Shown here piece by piece: positions 1-10,584 of a stretch of 37,514 nt of DNA; position 1 is the stretch's first letter; each line of letters starts with the position of its first letter. The stretch lies in IMG/VR virus record IMGVR_UViG_2534681759_000011. The stretch is one strand, 5' to 3'. This DNA comes from a virus (taxonomy: Duplodnaviria; Heunggongvirae; Uroviricota; Caudoviricetes). The notes under the pieces were generated by a model. The model had not been told where the DNA came from and ran no database searches. It saw only the letters and a program-made list of their open reading frames with translations. A program made the position numbers and the translations under genes.

Positions 1-1002
1 TTACCCTCTATTGTCAAAAGGGTTCAATTCAACAGCAGCCTCTAAATGACCTGGAGCAAAATGCGCATAACGCATAGTCATTTTTATATCGCTATGCCCC
101 AGTATTTTTTGCAACACAAGAATATTTCCGCCCCGCATCATAAAATGACTGGCAAACGTGTGACGTAGCACATGAGTTAATTGCCCATCAGGAAGCTCGA
201 TCTTCGCTCTCTTAATTGCAGCGTCAAAAGCCTCATAACATGGTGAAAATAGCGCTCCTCGTTTTTTAGGAAGCATAGCCTGCAATTGAGGTGAAATCGG
301 TACAGTGCGGTTCTTCTTTCCTTTAGTTTTAACAAATGTGATTCGACCGGGCAGTACTTGAGATTGCTTTAATCCTTCTGCTTCACTCCACCGAGCACCA
401 GTCGCAAGCCCAATACGGACAACAACCCCCAAATCTTTATTCCGTGACTCATCACACGCAATCAGAAGGCGTTCAATCTCATCTACATACAGAAACGCCA
501 GTTCCTTTTCTTCCTCACGAAACTTGCGAATACCAGTCAGGGGGTTTTCACCAGACCACTCCCCAAGGCGCTTCAGTTCGGCAAAAACAGCATGTAGATA
601 TGACTGCTCGCGATTAACGGTTGCTTCACTAAGTTTTTTCTTCCCCTTGGGATTCCATTCTCCTGATAGCCTTCTTTCCCGATAAGTAGCAAACATATTT
701 TTGTCAAACTGCGAAGCAAATGGATCTCCCAGCCTGGAACAAATCGCCTCAAGTTTGACTTTGCGCTCTGCACCAGAGGACAAGGTTTTACCGTACATCT
801 CAAACCAACGAGCAATCAACTCAGAAAGACGAGGACCAGAACCATCTTGAAACTCGTCTCCAACTCTACTATTCATTAAACGGCGCTCATAAGAGAGCGC
901 CTCACTTTTTGTCGCAAACTGTTTACGAATGCGTTTTCCCGATGCCCCGTAGGGATAACATTCGCAAAGCCATTTACCTGATGGAATCTTACGAACCGAC
1001 AT
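1..1002 (-). CDS. int: Tyrosine recombinase (phage integrase), 333 aa, complete
   Basis: C-terminal catalytic box HVLRHTFASH...GHSDIKMTMRYAH (His-x-x-Arg and terminal Tyr of the R-H-R-Y tetrad); sits at the prophage end on the same strand as the repressor, as in P2-family prophages. Confidence 0.9.
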   Translation of the reverse strand: MSVRKIPSGKWLCECYPYGASGKRIRKQFATKSEALSYERRLMNSRVGDEFQDGSGPRLSELIARWFEMYGKTLSSGAERKVKLEAICSRLGDPFASQFDKNMFATYRERRLSGEWNPKGKKKLSEATVNREQSYLHAVFAELKRLGEWSGENPLTGIRKFREEEKELAFLYVDEIERLLIACDESRNKDLGVVVRIGLATGARWSEAEGLKQSQVLPGRITFVKTKGKKNRTVPISPQLQAMLPKKRGALFSPCYEAFDAAIKRAKIELPDGQLTHVLRHTFASHFMMRGGNILVLQKILGHSDIKMTMRYAHFAPGHLEAAVELNPFDNRG

Positions 1003-1007
1003 TTTAG

Positions 1008-1355
1008 TTACTTATCACATAAATCAAATGCAGCCTTAGTGACATCCCCCAGACTCTTTTTTAACCCTGGGGCGGCATCATTATCTAGCCAAAATGGATT
1101 ATTGTTATCTAACGGTAACGCACCAAATGTTTTACCTTTTATTCGAGCCAAACCTGTAAGTGCATATAACTTATTATCGTCAAAATTCATTACATAAGGA
1201 TTACCATCAAGACACTGTAATTGAACCTCATCAGTATTAAATGGCCACACCCCATTGAAACTCTCACGTTCAATGGTTTTAAAAGGCATTGCGACGGCGG
1301 AAAAAGAAAACATAGATAAAAAAGTAACTAATAGTTGAACCTTTTTAACTTTCAT
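1008..1355 (-). CDS. Small secreted protein with signal peptide, resembles the YebY/DUF2511 family (115 aa)
   Basis: N-terminal signal peptide MKVKKVQLLVTFLSMFSFSAVA; two Cys (C48, C113) that could form a disulfide; remembered similarity to E. coli YebY; AT-rich relative to the phage backbone. Confidence 0.55.
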   Translation of the reverse strand: MKVKKVQLLVTFLSMFSFSAVAMPFKTIERESFNGVWPFNTDEVQLQCLDGNPYVMNFDDNKLYALTGLARIKGKTFGALPLDNNNPFWLDNDAAPGLKKSLGDVTKAAFDLCDK

Positions 1356-1384
1356 ATCATTACCTCAATTTAGCTCAAGTAAGA

Positions 1385-2035
1385 TTACAAATTAAAAAAC
1401 GCTCTAGAAATGACACCGCCTACCAAACCCCCTACGCAGATAAAGAATATTATTTCTTTTGGATAAAGTCGGATTAATTCTGAAGCACGAAGTCGGACTT
1501 CTGGTAAGGTCGAACTCTCTGTGTGGCTTGATGCCGATTGTTGCTCTAACCACGACAATGCAGACTGTAACTGAGAACGAGTAAGATCGTTTAAACGTCC
1601 TGTACCGAAATTGATATGGCAATACCGCAGAAGTTTTTGTCGAAGTCCACAGTCTTCACTGTTACGTAGTAATAAACTTACAAGAGCCTTACAGGCATCA
1701 TGATCTTTACATCGCTCAAGCATTGCATGCAGAAAACTCTCCGCTGTTTTATATTGATTTACTGTCATATCATCAATACCAGCTACACCAATCTCCGCAT
1801 GTACTTTTTGCCAAATAATAAACGCTTCAGTATTGCTAGCTTCTGCAATAGCAGCAACCAAGCTATTTAGCTCCTTACGCTGAGCCTTAAGCAAAGGGCG
1901 ATCGTCATCATCATTATTCGAAGGGATTGCGATATTGACGGTATGAGAACCATCATATCGCTCTATCTGAATATTCTTTTCGTGAAAATCACGCCCAGCA
2001 ACGCGATTGTTTGAACCGTTTGAGTTGACGGCCAT
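1385..2035 (-). CDS. Tail-anchored membrane protein of unknown function (216 aa)
   Basis: Single C-terminal hydrophobic helix IIFFICVGGLVGGVI; N-terminus carries the motif NNRVAGRDFHE that matches the C-terminal tail of the upstream repressor; AT-rich; located between the repressor and int. Confidence 0.6.
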   Translation of the reverse strand: MAVNSNGSNNRVAGRDFHEKNIQIERYDGSHTVNIAIPSNNDDDDRPLLKAQRKELNSLVAAIAEASNTEAFIIWQKVHAEIGVAGIDDMTVNQYKTAESFLHAMLERCKDHDACKALVSLLLRNSEDCGLRQKLLRYCHINFGTGRLNDLTRSQLQSALSWLEQQSASSHTESSTLPEVRLRASELIRLYPKEIIFFICVGGLVGGVISRAFFNL

Positions 2036-2050
2036 GTCACCTCCCTACTA

Positions 2051-2455
2051 TCACCTGCCCTTAGTTTCGTTATAGTCACGACCAGCGATACGGTTATTAC
2101 CACCAGAAATATTTAACTCACGTCCTGATGGCTGAGTTTCCTTTTCACTGATCGCACCTTTTAAAGCCCCAATCACCGCGTTTTTCACATCTAACGAAGC
2201 TGCTCGAAAGCGAGTAATCAACTCCTGCTCATCATCGTTATAAGTTTCAGGTGAGTGAATTCCCAACACAACATACTGAACATCAAGGCCAAAACGAGAC
2301 AGCGCTGCCAAATACGCAGCATCAGGAAAGCTATCTCCTTTCTCATATCTAAGCTGAGTTAGCTTTTTGACTCCACCAATGTCGCTCATGGCAACTTGAC
2401 TAAGTCCCAATCTTTCCCTTTCCTCACGCAACCGCTGACCAATATCATTTTTCAT
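2051..2455 (-). CDS. HTH (XRE/Cro-C1 type) transcriptional repressor, probable immunity repressor (134 aa)
   Basis: N-terminal helix-turn-helix (QRLREERERLGLSQVAMSDIGGVKKLTQLRYEKG); transcribed divergently from the early operon and co-directional with int; too short to carry a LexA-like S24 peptidase domain. Confidence 0.75.
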   Translation of the reverse strand: MKNDIGQRLREERERLGLSQVAMSDIGGVKKLTQLRYEKGDSFPDAAYLAALSRFGLDVQYVVLGIHSPETYNDDEQELITRFRAASLDVKNAVIGALKGAISEKETQPSGRELNISGGNNRIAGRDYNETKGR

Positions 2456-2530
2456 ACAAAAACCTTGACAGGTATCTTTTTTGATACCAAAATGATTTCA
2501 CGAGCTATTAGATGATCACAATATACCACT
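2456..2530. promoter_or_regulatory. Divergent promoter/operator region between the repressor and the early operon
   Basis: TTGACA at 2465-2470 followed by the palindrome GGTATC-N6-GATACC (2471-2488); positioned like the P2 Pe/Pc switch region. Confidence 0.4.
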
Positions 2531-2737
2531 ATGAAACAAGTTCTTCACGATACCAGATCACGCATTCCGCGTAACACCGCCACAGGTCCAAGACTGGCAC
2601 TTCGGCTGTCCCTCGAGGAGCGAGCCGTCATTGATGAAATGGCAGCTAAAGAACAACGCTCATCCTCTAACATGGCGCGCATGATCTTCCTTCGCGGCCT
2701 AGAACTAACCCAGAAAGAACAAAACAAATCTTCCTGA
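2531..2737 (+). CDS. Small DNA-binding regulator, ribbon-helix-helix-like (68 aa), first gene of the early operon
   Basis: Pattern RLALRLSLEERAVIDEMAAKE typical of RHH (Arc/CopG-type) proteins; occupies the Cox/Apl/Cro position. Confidence 0.45.
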   Translation: MKQVLHDTRSRIPRNTATGPRLALRLSLEERAVIDEMAAKEQRSSSNMARMIFLRGLELTQKEQNKSS

Positions 2738-2753
2738 TCAAGAGGCTAGTGGG

Positions 2754-2957
2754 ATGTCAGGTATAACCATCAATATCAATGTGAATGCCCCCTATGTATC
2801 CCTGCAGAAATATGCAGAGATAACAGGTATCCCTCTTAATACATGCAAAAAGATGTTGGCTGACGGTCGAATTATTATCCGCCCCAAACGCGCCAAAATG
2901 GAAAAGCCTGAAGTAAACCTTGTGGCGATGTTAAAAGACGCTTTGACTAACAGCTAA
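2754..2957 (+). CDS. Small HTH protein, Cox/Apl/excisionase-like (67 aa)
   Basis: HTH segment YVSLQKYAEITGIPLNTCKKMLADGRI resembling AlpA/Xis/Cox-type winged helices. Confidence 0.45.
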   Translation: MSGITININVNAPYVSLQKYAEITGIPLNTCKKMLADGRIIIRPKRAKMEKPEVNLVAMLKDALTNS

Positions 2958-2978
2958 AACAATGAACAGAGCACCATC

Positions 2979-3329
2979 ATGAAAAAAAACGCTAATAATC
3001 CATACTCCAAATTTCGTAATGGCGTAGAACGCCATGTACACCACGTCGCTACCAGTGCATCACGTAGTAACAGTCGCTATAACCTGAACGAGACGCACGC
3101 AACACCGGATGGCCACGCTGTAAAACAAATCGGCGAGCATGCCTGGCTGATTGAGAAAGCTGGAATCGTGGTCCACAAATGCCCACGCAATCCGTTTACC
3201 GGAAACCGCATTTTTGCTCTAAGCAGTGGCGACAATCAGTTCGGGCAGGATTTCACATTATACGAAGCACTTCGCACGGTTGATCGTCTGCTTCGCGGGC
3301 AAAGTTTTATTAAACAGGCTGATTTATAA
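2979..3329 (+). CDS. Hypothetical early protein (116 aa)
   Basis: ORF in the early operon; function not recognisable. Confidence 0.45.
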   Translation: MKKNANNPYSKFRNGVERHVHHVATSASRSNSRYNLNETHATPDGHAVKQIGEHAWLIEKAGIVVHKCPRNPFTGNRIFALSSGDNQFGQDFTLYEALRTVDRLLRGQSFIKQADL

Positions 3330-3339
3330 CAGGTGCTTT

Positions 3340-3627
3340 ATGACCAAAGACCATGCACAAGGTGTATTTATCCGTTTTATTGATTTTCGCGGTGAACTGT
3401 TATTACGTGCATCCGCTATTGACGGAGTGACTCCGGCGGGTAAAAACGGAGCCGACGAAGCCACTTACGTTTATCTGAACGGCACGCGACTGCTTGTGGA
3501 ACTTCCGTACCAGACCGTACGAGAAATCATTAGCGAAGCTGAAAAGGCACGCCAGGTTAATGGCGATGAACCCTATATCGAAATTATTTGTATGGATTCA
3601 GAAGCTGAAATACAGAAAGCAGATTAA
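3340..3627 (+). CDS. Hypothetical early protein (95 aa)
   Basis: ATG at 3340 preceded by AGGTG; the longer annotated ORF from 3226 overlaps the previous gene and is probably not the true start. Confidence 0.45.
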   Translation: MTKDHAQGVFIRFIDFRGELLLRASAIDGVTPAGKNGADEATYVYLNGTRLLVELPYQTVREIISEAEKARQVNGDEPYIEIICMDSEAEIQKAD

Positions 3628-3635
3628 AGGGCGTT

Positions 3636-3881
3636 GTGATGGGCAAAGAATATAAAACTCTCATTAACAAAGCACTTGAGCGTTTTTATTTTCGCTTAAG
3701 TGCATCAGGCGCTCATGCTGAACGTGCGGCCCGTGACTCATTGACCAGAGCAATCCGAAGTCTGTATGACGTAGCTTTTTACGCTGATGATCTGGATGCA
3801 CTTAACGAACTTTCCGAGCTGATCTGTGCCGCAGAATGCGGGGAACATATTGAACCGTATAAGCTGGGGAATATCGCATGA
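3636..3881 (+). CDS. Hypothetical early protein (81 aa)
   Basis: ORF with coupled downstream gene (ATGA overlap at 3878-3881). Confidence 0.45.
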   Translation: MMGKEYKTLINKALERFYFRLSASGAHAERAARDSLTRAIRSLYDVAFYADDLDALNELSELICAAECGEHIEPYKLGNIA

Positions 3882-3991
3882 GTATATTTATCTCATGGCT
3901 TGTTCTGATTATTTCGGTGGCCTGCGCTATTGGGATTATGCGAATTATTCATTCAATAAAAAAGATTGAACGCTTTTTCACTGGCGAATAA
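3878..3991 (+). CDS. Small single-pass membrane peptide (37 aa), possible host-kil or toxin-like peptide
   Basis: Translation MSIFISWLVLIISVACAIGIMRIIHSIKKIERFFTGE; ATG overlaps the stop of the preceding gene; below the ORF-track length threshold. Confidence 0.35.
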   Translation: MSIFISWLVLIISVACAIGIMRIIHSIKKIERFFTGE

Positions 3992-4077
3992 CAGAACAAA
4001 TAAAACCACAGATTAAATAAGAAAATGTAAAAACAATCCGCATTCGCGGAGGTATTCGCACACGCCAAGGAGGCGTA

Positions 4078-4281
4078 ATGGCAATTAAGCATTTTCCTGT
4101 CGTTCGTTTTACCTCCAGAGGGCGGGAATACGAAGTCGACGAACGCCTGATTACCACAATCGACAAACACCGTTCAGAAAAGGATGCACATCACATCTAT
4201 CTCACTGACGGCACTTACTTCTGCGCCACGAATGTGGTGCGGGTGAACCTTATCCGACAGGTACAGGAGTCACGCAGATGA
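4078..4281 (+). CDS. Hypothetical early protein (67 aa)
   Basis: Strong RBS AGGAGG upstream of the ATG. Confidence 0.5.
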   Translation: MAIKHFPVVRFTSRGREYEVDERLITTIDKHRSEKDAHHIYLTDGTYFCATNVVRVNLIRQVQESRR

Positions 4282-4523
4282 CCATTCTGGACTATATTGC
4301 CGCCAATCCGGGGTGTAGCGGTGGAGAAATCGCCGCAGCACTGAATACCCCAACCACAGCCATTAATGCGGAGTTACGCCGACTCTGGCGCAGCGGTTCA
4401 GTCATAAGAAAAGAGCGCAAAACAGGCGGTCGCTTTTCTTACCAGATAAACCCGATGCCGTTCGGGTGTGGCAATCCACTTACCAACATGTTTAACCAGC
4501 TACTGAAGGAAGCCAGAGCATGA
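4278..4523 (+). CDS. Hypothetical early protein (81 aa)
   Basis: Start overlaps the previous stop; not otherwise recognisable. Confidence 0.4.
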   Translation: MTILDYIAANPGCSGGEIAAALNTPTTAINAELRRLWRSGSVIRKERKTGGRFSYQINPMPFGCGNPLTNMFNQLLKEARA

Positions 4524-4819
4524 GCGCCATCAACCACAAGGAATTACGCGAACTGGCGACTGACCTGCAACGAATGGCAACGCCTCAAAAATTACTGGCG
4601 TTTCGCGCAATGCTCTCGCCGTCTGCTGTGCTGGCGCTGCTGGATGAGCTGGAGCACGCCAGAACCACACCTCTCGCCATTCGCCTGACGCTCCGTCATG
4701 AAATCGAGGATTTCTGCGCGACGTTGGAGGCGCCAGGCGAACCGGAAACGCCGGAAGCAATACAGCAAGAGCTGCTGCAACGCATTGACAAGGTTTTTGA
4801 TTTTTTTCTGAACCACTAA
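4520..4819 (+). CDS. Hypothetical early protein (99 aa)
   Basis: Start overlaps the previous stop. Confidence 0.45.
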   Translation: MSAINHKELRELATDLQRMATPQKLLAFRAMLSPSAVLALLDELEHARTTPLAIRLTLRHEIEDFCATLEAPGEPETPEAIQQELLQRIDKVFDFFLNH

Positions 4820-5141
4820 GAAACCAGAACATGCACACACAAAAAAACCGCTTGCCATGCCGCAATCAGTCAGGTTACATTTCCGCTGCACCTCATAAAA
4901 CGGGTGCCGGGTTTCGCAGCCCGCTGACAAACGTAGCGCACAACCGCGCCAGCGGTTTTTTTGTGCGTACTGTATCGCCACGTCTTTTTCGCATCAGAAT
5001 TATGGTGGGGCGTACGGGGCCGACTTCGGTCGGGCCGGGTTCTGCGTTTGCCGGTACTGCGAACCTCGTACGTCTCGCCACCCACAGTTTCGCAGCTCTG
5101 GATGGTGAGTTTTCAAAACTTACACACGTAGAGGCCACACC

Positions 5142-5372
5142 ATGGCAAACCGCAAACAGCACCGCGCTATCGCGGAGCGTCGTCACATCCAGACTGAAAT
5201 CAACCGCAGACTTTCCCGCGCATCACGCGTCGCGCAAATCATGCACATCAATATGCTGCATGAGCGTAGCTGCGAACTTTCAAACCTCTATTCATCCGCT
5301 GTTTTCAGTTATCTGGCGGATGATCTGCGCGAGCTTCAGCAGCTCATCCAGCAGCAAAACAAACTCCATTAA
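5142..5372 (+). CDS. Hypothetical small basic protein (76 aa)
   Basis: Arg-rich N-terminus; follows a GC-rich structured intergenic region; weak RBS. Confidence 0.3.
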   Translation: MANRKQHRAIAERRHIQTEINRRLSRASRVAQIMHINMLHERSCELSNLYSSAVFSYLADDLRELQQLIQQQNKLH

Positions 5373-5444
5373 TTCCTGTTCCGGGCCTTTCCTGCACCTT
5401 GCGGCGGGAGGCCTTCGCACATCTGTAACAAGAGGATTGCCGCA

Positions 5445-7724
<2,280 letters not shown>

Positions 7725-7776
7725 ATTGACAACAGTCTGCCGCGACACCCTGAATGGCATAACGAAGTAAATCACT

Positions 7777-10584
7777 ATGACGGCAGAGTACATCAGGGAC
7801 TGGCAGCAACCGCGCCACGCAGTGGGGCGTGAAGGAACGGGGATCCCCGCTCCTGAATCCGCGCTTTCCTCCTGGCTGGATGCCTACCGGGCAGAGAACG
7901 AGCGCTGCCAGGAAATGGCTGATGCGGCGTTCTCCGCCACGCCGCTGGGCAACCTGATTAATAAAAGCCTGGACGCACAGGAAAAACAGGACAAAACCAT
8001 CACACTGGCAGGAGACGCCAGAAAGCAGGTACGCGGCGCGGTGGATGAAGCCATGGCCTCGCTGCGCCTGCTGCCATCCTATCTGCGCGATCCGCTTATT
8101 CGCCACCTCTCCTTCCTGCGCAAAAAACAGGAATCTGACCGCCAGAAAGGTAAAAAGAACCAGCAGGCTGAACGCTACGCGCGCGGGACCCTGCGCAAAA
8201 TATTCGAACGTCTGGATCGCACTGACGGGCGCTGGCTGACACCGGGTTATCGCTCCCTTGCCGGGCGCGAACGCCTGGACGATTTGCTTTACCTGCCGCA
8301 GCTCAACAAGCACCAGATACAGACGCTGGCCACCATGACGGCGGCGATGTTCAGCAGCACCTTCGAAACACTCTGCGATGGCTTTGGTGCCAGAGATGGC
8401 GAGCTGACCATGGATGTAATGTTGAAGGCTTACCGGATGCTGGCCCGTATCGCATTACGCCTGCACATCATGCCGCCACATTACGAAGCCCTGAACAAGA
8501 GCGATCCGGATACGGAACTGTTACCGGGCGCAATCCTTCGCCTGACCTGTGCGGAATGGTGGAAACGCAAATTGTGGCTGTTACGTTGCGAGTGGAGAGA
8601 AGAACAACTCCGCGCCGCCTGTCTGGTTTCCAGAAAAACATCACCCTATCTGAGCCAGGACGCGTTAAGCGAGTTTCGCGCACAGCGCGAGAAAACACGC
8701 GATTTCCTGAAAAGTTTCATGCTGGAAAACGAAGACGGGTTCACGATTGATCTCGAGACAGTGTATTACGCGGGAGTAAGTAACCCGGTTCACCGTAAGG
8801 CAGAAATGATGGCCACCATGAAGGGGCTGGAACTTCTGGCCGAAGCCCGTGGCGACAAAGCGGTGTTTCTGACTGTCACCTGCCCGTCAAAATACCACGC
8901 CACAACAGAGAACGGTCATCCGAATCCCAAATGGAACGGGGCCACCATGCGCGACTCCAGCGATTACCTGGTTAACACGTTTTTTGCGGCGGTCCGCAAG
9001 AAACTGAACCGCGACGGCCTGCGCTGGTATGGCATCCGCACGGTGGAGCCTCACCATGACGGCACCGTGCACTGGCATATGATGGTCTTTGCACATCCGG
9101 ACGAGATTGAAACCATCGTGTCCCACGTCTGCGATATTGCCATTCAGGAAGACCGCCACGAGCTGGGCGATGACATAACTCCGCGTTTTAAGGCGGAGTA
9201 CGTAGACGGCTCAAAAGGCACACCAACCAGCTACATCGCCACCTACATCGGAAAGAACCTGGACAGCCGCGCCGTGGATGGCATCGACCAGAAAACGGGC
9301 AAGCCACGCGTTGACCACGAAACCGGAAAATCAATGGCCGAGAGCGTGGAACGCGCCATCGGCTGGGCGCGCCTTCACCGGGTCCGCCAGTTCCAGTTCT
9401 TTGGCATCCCCTCCCGTCAGGTGTGGCGTGAACTCCGCCGCCTTGCCAGCCAGATGGCACGCAACCCGGAAGGCCCGCAACGGCTGAAGGATGACGCAAT
9501 GGATGCGGTACTCGCTGCCGCTGATGCAGGATGTTTTGCCACCTACATAGAGAAACAGGGCGGCGTACTTGTTCCACGCAAAGACTACCTGATTCGCACC
9601 GCCTACGACCTCGCCGATGAGCTGAACGATTACGGCGAACAGAGCGTACAGATTTACGGGATCTGGTCACCACTCATCGGGGAATCCTCCCGTGTGTGCA
9701 CGCATCCGGATAACTGGAAGCTGGTAAGACGCAAACCGGAAGCGGAAGACAGCGCCCGCGAAAATGGTTTTGACCTTCAGGGCGGCCCTGCCGCCCCTTG
9801 GACTCGTGGCAATAACTGTCCCCGTGTACAGGAAACAGGCAACAGCGGGACAGAACAGTCGAAAGAACGGCCAGCACCGTGGCCGCAGCTTCCTGACGGC
9901 GTTGAAGTGAACGAATGGATGCGCTCACTGAAACGGCACGAACGCCGGGCGCTGATGCGTTCGCTTCGTGACAAACAGGCAAAAAACAGCAGTGATGAAA
10001 TGCAGAGCTGGACACAGAGCCGCAAACAGCAGCGGCCTTTGCCTGATAACCACGAATTACTCGCTAAAGAATGGCGGGAGTCTGCCGAATCTCTCGGCCT
10101 GCATATCGGTGAACAGCAGATGCAGCACCTGCTACGGGGCGGCAGCCTGTACGTTGACGGCAGCATCATTGCACCGCAGGGATATGAAATTGTACGCAAA
10201 CCGGATACCCGCCCGGACAGCCGAATCACGCAGCTCTGGCAGCACCTGAGCCGTAATCACGGCGTAAGCAGCACGGAGATCCGCCATAACCCGGTCGCCA
10301 GCTATCTGGCACAGCTGGGGGCATCAGACCCCGAAGCCGCCGCACGCCTGGCATCCGCACTTCAGCAGGATCAGAACACCATGAAAACACCCGTTACCGT
10401 GCTTTCTGACATGCTGCGCGCCATCCGCGACGCAGAGCACGCACAGAGAATCAGTGAAACCACTGAACGCGCCAGCCGCAAAGCAGACCTGCTGCAGGGT
10501 GGCCTGACCAGTGGAAACAAAAAACAGACAGAAACGGGATCCACAAATCCCGTAAATGAGCAAAAAACGCGCCGCGATATATGA
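7777..10584 (+). CDS. A: Rolling-circle replication initiation endonuclease, P2 gpA family (935 aa)
   Basis: HUH motif in EPHHDGTVHWHMMVF and catalytic tyrosine pair in YIATYIGKNLD; weak RBS, start immediately downstream of the IS. Confidence 0.85.
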   Translation: MTAEYIRDWQQPRHAVGREGTGIPAPESALSSWLDAYRAENERCQEMADAAFSATPLGNLINKSLDAQEKQDKTITLAGDARKQVRGAVDEAMASLRLLPSYLRDPLIRHLSFLRKKQESDRQKGKKNQQAERYARGTLRKIFERLDRTDGRWLTPGYRSLAGRERLDDLLYLPQLNKHQIQTLATMTAAMFSSTFETLCDGFGARDGELTMDVMLKAYRMLARIALRLHIMPPHYEALNKSDPDTELLPGAILRLTCAEWWKRKLWLLRCEWREEQLRAACLVSRKTSPYLSQDALSEFRAQREKTRDFLKSFMLENEDGFTIDLETVYYAGVSNPVHRKAEMMATMKGLELLAEARGDKAVFLTVTCPSKYHATTENGHPNPKWNGATMRDSSDYLVNTFFAAVRKKLNRDGLRWYGIRTVEPHHDGTVHWHMMVFAHPDEIETIVSHVCDIAIQEDRHELGDDITPRFKAEYVDGSKGTPTSYIATYIGKNLDSRAVDGIDQKTGKPRVDHETGKSMAESVERAIGWARLHRVRQFQFFGIPSRQVWRELRRLASQMARNPEGPQRLKDDAMDAVLAAADAGCFATYIEKQGGVLVPRKDYLIRTAYDLADELNDYGEQSVQIYGIWSPLIGESSRVCTHPDNWKLVRRKPEAEDSARENGFDLQGGPAAPWTRGNNCPRVQETGNSGTEQSKERPAPWPQLPDGVEVNEWMRSLKRHERRALMRSLRDKQAKNSSDEMQSWTQSRKQQRPLPDNHELLAKEWRESAESLGLHIGEQQMQHLLRGGSLYVDGSIIAPQGYEIVRKPDTRPDSRITQLWQHLSRNHGVSSTEIRHNPVASYLAQLGASDPEAAARLASALQQDQNTMKTPVTVLSDMLRAIRDAEHAQRISETTERASRKADLLQGGLTSGNKKQTETGSTNPVNEQKTRRDI

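Follow-up and report, generated by a model that had tools for sequence, protein, structure and literature searches.

In phage 186, the corresponding stretch of the early operon carries two small accessory genes directed at the host: fil, which specifies a cell division inhibitor of 75 aa, and dhr (66 aa). Small uncharacterised membrane proteins are common in phage early operons, and several small single-pass proteins, such as SidA of Caulobacter and AcrZ, MgrB and Blr of E. coli, act by binding larger membrane proteins. A phage example is Gp56 of SPO1, a product of the early host-takeover region, which binds FtsL and blocks division (PMC8892312). A peptide of about 20-50 aa with a single inner-membrane helix is also the form taken by the type I toxins (TisB, DinQ, Hok, Ldr, Ibs), and DinQ has been described as a single transmembrane peptide (PMC3567139).

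The present analysis concerned a 37-codon reading frame in the window, by which is meant the whole stretch of viral DNA analysed (37,514 nucleotides, IMG/VR record IMGVR_UViG_2534681759_000011). The predicted product shares the small, hydrophobic shape of the type I toxins, and it is of a similar size class to SPO1 Gp56, with one transmembrane helix as well. Whereas holin genes are found in the late lysis cassette beside the endolysin gene, this frame lies in an early operon, between a cox-like gene and the replication gene gpA. It is very probably a real gene encoding a predicted membrane peptide.

Early operon of a P88-type prophage

The window represents a P88-type prophage of the P2 family (Xuanwuvirus, Peduoviridae), and positions 1-5776 and 7732-10560 share 99.9% identity with a prophage of ETEC H10407. 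A 501-bp region around the short frame matched phages P884B11 (99%), P88 (97%), PhiR44_2, Chuche, Citrobacter phage Shae_phiSM and others, and was matched in 1363 of 5426 complete E. coli genomes, or about a quarter. The rightward operon comprises, in order, a cox-like DNA-binding gene, a DUF4761 gene, a gene for a 95-aa protein, the DUF4754 gene, the peptide gene, a gene for a 67-aa protein, a MarR-type gene and an Ead/Ea22-like gene, and continues on to gpA (Table 1).

Table 1. Positions in the window of the peptide gene, its predicted parts and the neighbouring genes and signals.
Feature	Position	Strand or direction	Remarks
Integrase gene	1-1002	leftward	
DUF2511 protein gene	1008-1355	-	
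216-aa protein gene	1385-2035	-	annotated as 'membrane protein'
Repressor gene	2051-2455	leftward	
Candidate early promoter, TTGACA-17 nt-CAAAAT	2465-2493	+	10/12 match to consensus
80-aa DUF4754 protein gene	3639-3881	+	full-length Pfam match, E 2.8e-54
Shine-Dalgarno-like GGGGA	3866-3870	+	8 nt upstream of the ATG, within the final part of the DUF4754 gene
Coding sequence of the 37-aa predicted membrane peptide	3878-3991 (including stop)	+	ATG 3878-3880, TAA 3989-3991
Predicted transmembrane helix IFISWLVLIISVACAIGIM, codons 3-21	3884-3940	+	hydropathy, alignment, AlphaFold2
Basic amphipathic tail RIIHSIKKIERFFTGE, codons 22-37	3941-3988	+	hydrophobic moment, alignment
Conserved hairpin TCCGC-ATTC-GCGGA	4037-4050	+	5-bp stem, 46 nt past the peptide stop
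gpA (replication gene)	7777-10584	rightward	

A candidate early promoter separates the leftward repressor gene from the rightward early operon and would drive the peptide gene. Its location agrees with that of Pe/pR in P2 and 186 (the comparison was run for 186); sites of this kind are no commoner in the region than expected by chance, so its role as the early promoter is one that we infer. No promoter-like site adjoining the peptide frame was found on either strand, and the counts of such sites did not exceed those in shuffled sequences. The gene had originally been predicted to be coupled to an early gene, and it does overlap the DUF4754 gene of this operon by four bases. Overlaps of the same length also join the next gene pairs, at 4278 and 4520, and since they are thus the rule between neighbours in this operon, the coupling says little about a specific partnership with DUF4754. 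A possible hairpin at the start codon (CAUGAG...CUCAUG) was rejected, as its stability was no greater than that of shuffled sequence (z = 0.24).

Other features of the prophage were recorded along with the operon. An IS21-family element of 1955 bp occupies positions 5777-7731 (istA at 5863-6792, istB at 6883-7665) and is flanked by a 5-bp target duplication. It lies within the 3' end of a gene for a 122-aa protein just upstream of gpA, and is absent from the H10407 prophage, which is otherwise 99.9% identical. With this insertion, gpA is probably no longer coupled to the early promoter, and the prophage in the window may be defective in replication. Between the peptide gene and this element, matches at the Rfam gathering level were found on the + strand to isrK (4888-4962, 69.6 bits) and to C4 antisense RNA (4998-5085, 80.4 bits). 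These lie directly upstream of an ORF (5142-5372) that is the positional counterpart of the 'derepression protein' of P88, a layout that looks like the known antirepressor arrangement controlled by C4/IsrK. On the minus strand, the interval between integrase and repressor (1008-2035) holds two cargo-like genes, one for a DUF2511 protein and the other for a 216-aa protein. Neither was matched by PADLOC, and both may be morons expressed in the lysogen.

A conserved reading frame and its predicted product

The original prediction placed an ATG at 3878, overlapping the preceding stop codon, at the head of a frame of 37 codons, and both the coordinates and the translation (MSIFISWLVLIISVACAIGIMRIIHSIKKIERFFTGE, 37 aa) agree with this. 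The junction at 3866-3882 reads ...GGGGAATATCGC ATG A GT..., and the four bases ATGA are shared between the start codon and the TGA (3879-3881) of the upstream 80-aa ORF. The GGGGA before the start pairs with the 3' end of 16S rRNA at -5.5 kcal/mol, and the sites of its operon neighbours at -5.3 to -6.9. The sites of related loci gave -4.2 to -8.5, with the exception of one indel-ridden record that lacks the ATG (-3.3), values to be read against a baseline in which about 20% of random positions attain -4 kcal/mol.

Conservation of the frame in relatives had been named as a check, and its absence there, along with the lack of a translation signal, as grounds for refutation. The set for comparison, 157 related loci in all, was assembled from phage records, from a genome of E. 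albertii, from IMG/VR contigs located through DUF4754 variants, and from contigs that encode distant relatives of the peptide; the IMG/VR scans supplied loci, and a scan of genome contigs with the DUF4754 protein gave only two. The frame was found in all 157, with a CATG start context in 155, and the frame is thus conserved among these relatives. The encoded peptides were of 37 aa in 137 loci, 41 aa in eight, 45 aa in seven and 30 aa in five. Among the 75 unique sequences, frame 0 was free of stops in every one and was the sole frame of which this was true, stops being present in 75 and 74 sequences in the +1 and +2 frames, and in 75, 51 and 75 in the three reverse frames. An overlapping +2 frame of 47 codons (3826-3969) is interrupted in distant relatives.

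The pattern of substitution was that of a coding sequence. Variable alleles numbered 32, 16 and 56 at the first, second and third codon positions, and dN/dS relative to the window copy was 0.10-0.44 (Nei-Gojobori). For the farthest relatives pS was 0.73, meaning that synonymous sites were near saturation, and pN was 0.24-0.26. Two distant loci (P0067 and P0069) specify peptides of 41 aa that are 57-59% identical to that of the window, at the same location and with the same four-base overlap. Their gene order is DUF4761, an 80-aa DUF4754-like gene, the peptide gene, and genes for 71-aa and 70-aa proteins, with gpA further on. Taken together, these comparisons are strong evidence that 3878-3991 is a translated gene under purifying selection.

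Alterations of the C-terminus were seen in 12 of the 157 loci (about 8%), the peptides being either 45 aa and frameshifted or truncated to 30 aa, and in these the otherwise invariant E31 and F34 are gone. The 45-aa variant arises from the loss of one base from a run of five T residues (3970-3974, within CGCTTTTTCAC) in seven loci, giving the new C-terminus ...ERFSLVNNDTNKTSN. Such loci may reflect a tail that is dispensable or whose change is tolerated, the decay of resident prophages, or sequencing errors in a homopolymer.

The product was originally predicted to be a single transmembrane helix with a short basic tail, and the computed properties are those of such a peptide. The mean Kyte-Doolittle hydropathy of residues 3-21 (19 residues) is 2.68, and the GRAVY value of the whole peptide is 1.26; of the 127 ORFs in the window that begin with ATG and specify 30-60 aa, only two have a hydrophobic stretch as strong. 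The tail (residues 22-37) contains four K/R, two D/E and one H, for a net charge of +2, and as a helix it has a hydrophobic moment of up to 0.86. AlphaFold2, run on the single sequence, predicted one helix spanning residues 2-34 (pLDDT 92). The family has eleven invariant residues (M1, S6, W7, L10, G19, I23, I24, K28, I30, E31 and F34), and positions 13 and 17 of the helix are always occupied by small residues. The family signature is a peptide of 37-41 aa with all eleven of these residues, and the window peptide has both. By the positive-inside rule the tail is predicted to be on the cytoplasmic side, and the best reading is that of a single-pass inner-membrane protein with its N-terminus out and its C-terminus in.

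The description of the gene as unannotated did not survive, as it is listed in GenBank, RefSeq and UniRef, and the term is accurate only for the length-limited ORF track from which it was drawn. The window peptide is WP_000021652.1 in RefSeq ('hypothetical protein', H10407). It is named 'membrane protein' in the P88 record (AIZ95115.1) and 'Prophage membrane protein' in UniRef, and its homologue in vB_EcoM-569R5 (URC09552.1) is a 'putative membrane protein'. In a collection of 15 billion proteins, the exact peptide was present on at least about 1000 contigs, other names there being 'MULTISPECIES: hypothetical protein [Enterobacteriaceae]' and 'Membrane protein', and members of its cluster came from Escherichia, Shigella and Salmonella. 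Annotated homologues were identical or 86-97% identical, with the same length, position and ATGA overlap.

When 1.84 billion representative proteins were searched exhaustively with phmmer, eight hits were obtained at E <= 0.001. All belonged to the peptide's own family, and came only from Escherichia, Salmonella, Shigella or a Citrobacter phage. Searches of Pfam, PHROG, NCBIfam and PADLOC gave no significant family for the peptide (best E about 0.2), PADLOC matched none of its neighbours either, and Rfam gave no match at E <= 1 over positions 3500-4400. The literature search returned no relevant paper on the peptide, on DUF4754, on Xuanwuvirus or on small membrane proteins of P2-like prophages, and the window prophage is absent from the discussion in a preprint on Ribo-seq of strain CFT073. 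The peptide belongs only to its own unnamed, already annotated family linked to DUF4754, and the narrowness of that family gives comparison little power to reveal function.

One locus in the set came from a record labelled Vagococcus sp. WN89Y (L008, NZ_JBQPOM010000071.1, 226 kb), which contains an E. coli-type prophage region in which DUF4754 is 98% identical and the 37-aa peptide is intact. The Gram-positive label is most likely the result of assembly contamination or mislabelling.

The DUF4754 partner and the downstream spacer

The pairing of DUF4754 with the peptide was kept in all loci, even where DUF4754 had diverged to 31-44% identity. The place downstream of the peptide gene, on the other hand, has seen exchange, with at least five unrelated genes found there, specifying proteins of 67/71, 92, 105, 137 and 162 aa. 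The AlphaFold2 model of DUF4754 is a helical hairpin (helices 4-48 and 52-66, pLDDT 88.8), and a fold search of this model against the PDB and BFVD gave nothing below E = 0.7 and no informative structural neighbour.

Where DUF4754 was 44% (locus L150), 38% and 31% identical to the window copy, the accompanying peptides were 81%, 57% and 59% identical, and identical peptides were found beside DUF4754 variants of 78-100% identity. The peptide is therefore the slower-changing of the two, which fits contact with something conserved, either the membrane or a host protein. Judged from these identities, a conserved contact would be favoured over a co-evolving phage partner, and a complex with DUF4754 would be compatible with them as well. 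Proteins of 103-128 aa annotated as 'DUF4754' appeared to be natural fusions of the two, and turned out to be frameshift artefacts that enter the +2 frame.

A mosaic boundary lies at window positions 3992-4100, and was seen in comparison with loci L009, L029, L059, L090, L091, L139 and L150-L152. Within the 86-nt spacer that follows the peptide gene (3992-4077) is a short hairpin, present in 157 of 157 loci, with eight loop variants and with 99.5% of cells paired. Two of its stem pairs show compensatory changes from C-G to U-A, and two one-sided stem changes give G.U pairs on the + strand RNA only. In loci with different downstream genes homology stops about 25 nt past the hairpin, which delimits the conserved block. 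A consensus scan score had raised the reading of this hairpin as a minus-strand terminator, and that reading was disfavoured because both one-sided changes pair in + strand RNA only. To judge from the G.U variants, the hairpin more probably acts in the early mRNA. Lacking a U-run on the + strand, it does not have the form of a standard terminator. In the window, a second hairpin (ACGCC-AAGGA-GGCGU, 4062-4076) holds the Shine-Dalgarno sequence of the gene for the 67-aa protein.

Possible function and comparison with known systems

The original suggestion was that small membrane peptides of phage early operons often have host-kil or division-inhibitor functions, and such a function would be possible for this peptide. 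The best explanation overall joins a real early-operon gene to a product acting as a membrane-embedded modulator. As a blend of the estimates for the gene and for the mechanism we regard it as somewhat probable, and the modulator mechanism taken by itself is tentative. According to this mechanism, the candidate early promoter would drive transcription of the peptide gene after repression is relieved, and the peptide would thus be absent from the resting lysogen and appear on infection or induction. Ribosomes ending DUF4754 would re-initiate at the overlapping ATG, aided by the moderate GGGGA. Once inserted into the inner membrane, the peptide would have its two uncharged N-terminal residues outside and the basic amphipathic tail (22-34) on the cytoplasmic side. 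Small residues along one face of the helix (S6, S/A13, A17 and G19), together with the invariant residues of the tail, may bind a putative conserved inner-membrane protein of the host, the juxtamembrane amphipathic helix being offered for helix-helix or surface binding, and the peptide might also bring DUF4754 to the membrane. In this way an envelope process, such as division or the entry of other phages, could be adjusted during early lytic growth, presumably without the punching of holes in the membrane. The peptide gene would be accessory and not essential.

Three alternatives have to be weighed against a modulator. Unlikely, though the least so of the three, is a peptide with no target of its own that serves only to tether DUF4754, which would hold the activity. 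In its favour, every locus has the peptide gene next to and overlapping that for DUF4754, whatever the DUF4754 identity (31-100%), whereas the downstream gene varies, and in the predicted structures the amphipathic tail could dock on the DUF4754 helical hairpin. However, no co-variation was seen between them, near-identical peptides occurring beside very different DUF4754 variants, no natural fusion of the two was found, and the overlap is generic in the operon. We consider rather improbable a kil-type toxin that oligomerises in the inner membrane and dissipates the proton-motive force, in the manner of TisB, DinQ, Hok or a holin, to bring about early shutdown of the host. The small size, the high GRAVY value and the single helix with a charged tail recall type I toxins and small holins in overall shape, and the positions of small residues could equally serve self-association. 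Such a toxin would, however, be expressed from the start of the lytic cycle, beside the replication genes, while the phage still needs an energised cell. The gene also stands outside the lysis cassette, and no toxin or holin family was matched. Unlike the genes of type I toxins, it is embedded in an operon and overlaps the upstream stop codon, and neither a promoter-like site for it alone nor an antisense RNA or other Rfam match was found.

By far the least probable of the alternatives is that there is no functional product, the frame being open by chance or because of an overlapping nucleic-acid signal, or else being a leader or spacer ORF that carries ribosomes onward. The shortness of the frame, the conservation of the downstream spacer with its structured hairpin, and the frameshifted and truncated C-termini would all be in keeping with this. 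It is opposed by the third-position bias and a dN/dS of 0.1-0.3, which hold near synonymous saturation, by the retention of hydrophobicity and of the eleven invariant residues at 57% identity, and by the breaks in the alternative +2 frame of distant relatives. A membrane-embedded modulator accordingly stays the preferred reading of the peptide's function, at the tentative level given above.

The peptide gene is an ordinary finding and opens no new question. It is nevertheless under purifying selection and lies in an early region common among complete E. coli genomes, which makes it a reasonable and cheap candidate for studies of small proteins, such as assays of toxicity, filamentation or phage exclusion.

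A more speculative proposal, which we hold to be improbable, is that DUF4754 and the peptide form an undescribed two-part, membrane-tethered device for host takeover or exclusion in Xuanwuvirus prophages. If so, the peptide would bind a conserved inner-membrane protein of the host early in lytic growth, for example a component of the divisome or of DNA uptake, and the conserved hairpin would set the 3' boundary or the stability of the mRNA of this module. The peptide would then be a membrane-based functional counterpart of 186 Fil.

Among the known systems, 186 Fil gave no alignment with the peptide by BLASTP at E <= 100, and a resemblance between IIRIVH and IMRIIH at the C-terminus of Fil was not significant. 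Fil and Dhr also differ from the peptide in having no hydrophobic, membrane-spanning helix. With Gp56-type small membrane proteins the likeness is one of architecture only, as no sequence relationship was found. The likeness to 186 is one of genomic setting: both fil/dhr and the peptide gene lie between the excisionase or regulator gene and the replication genes, and both are followed by a structured spacer, which in 186 is tR1.
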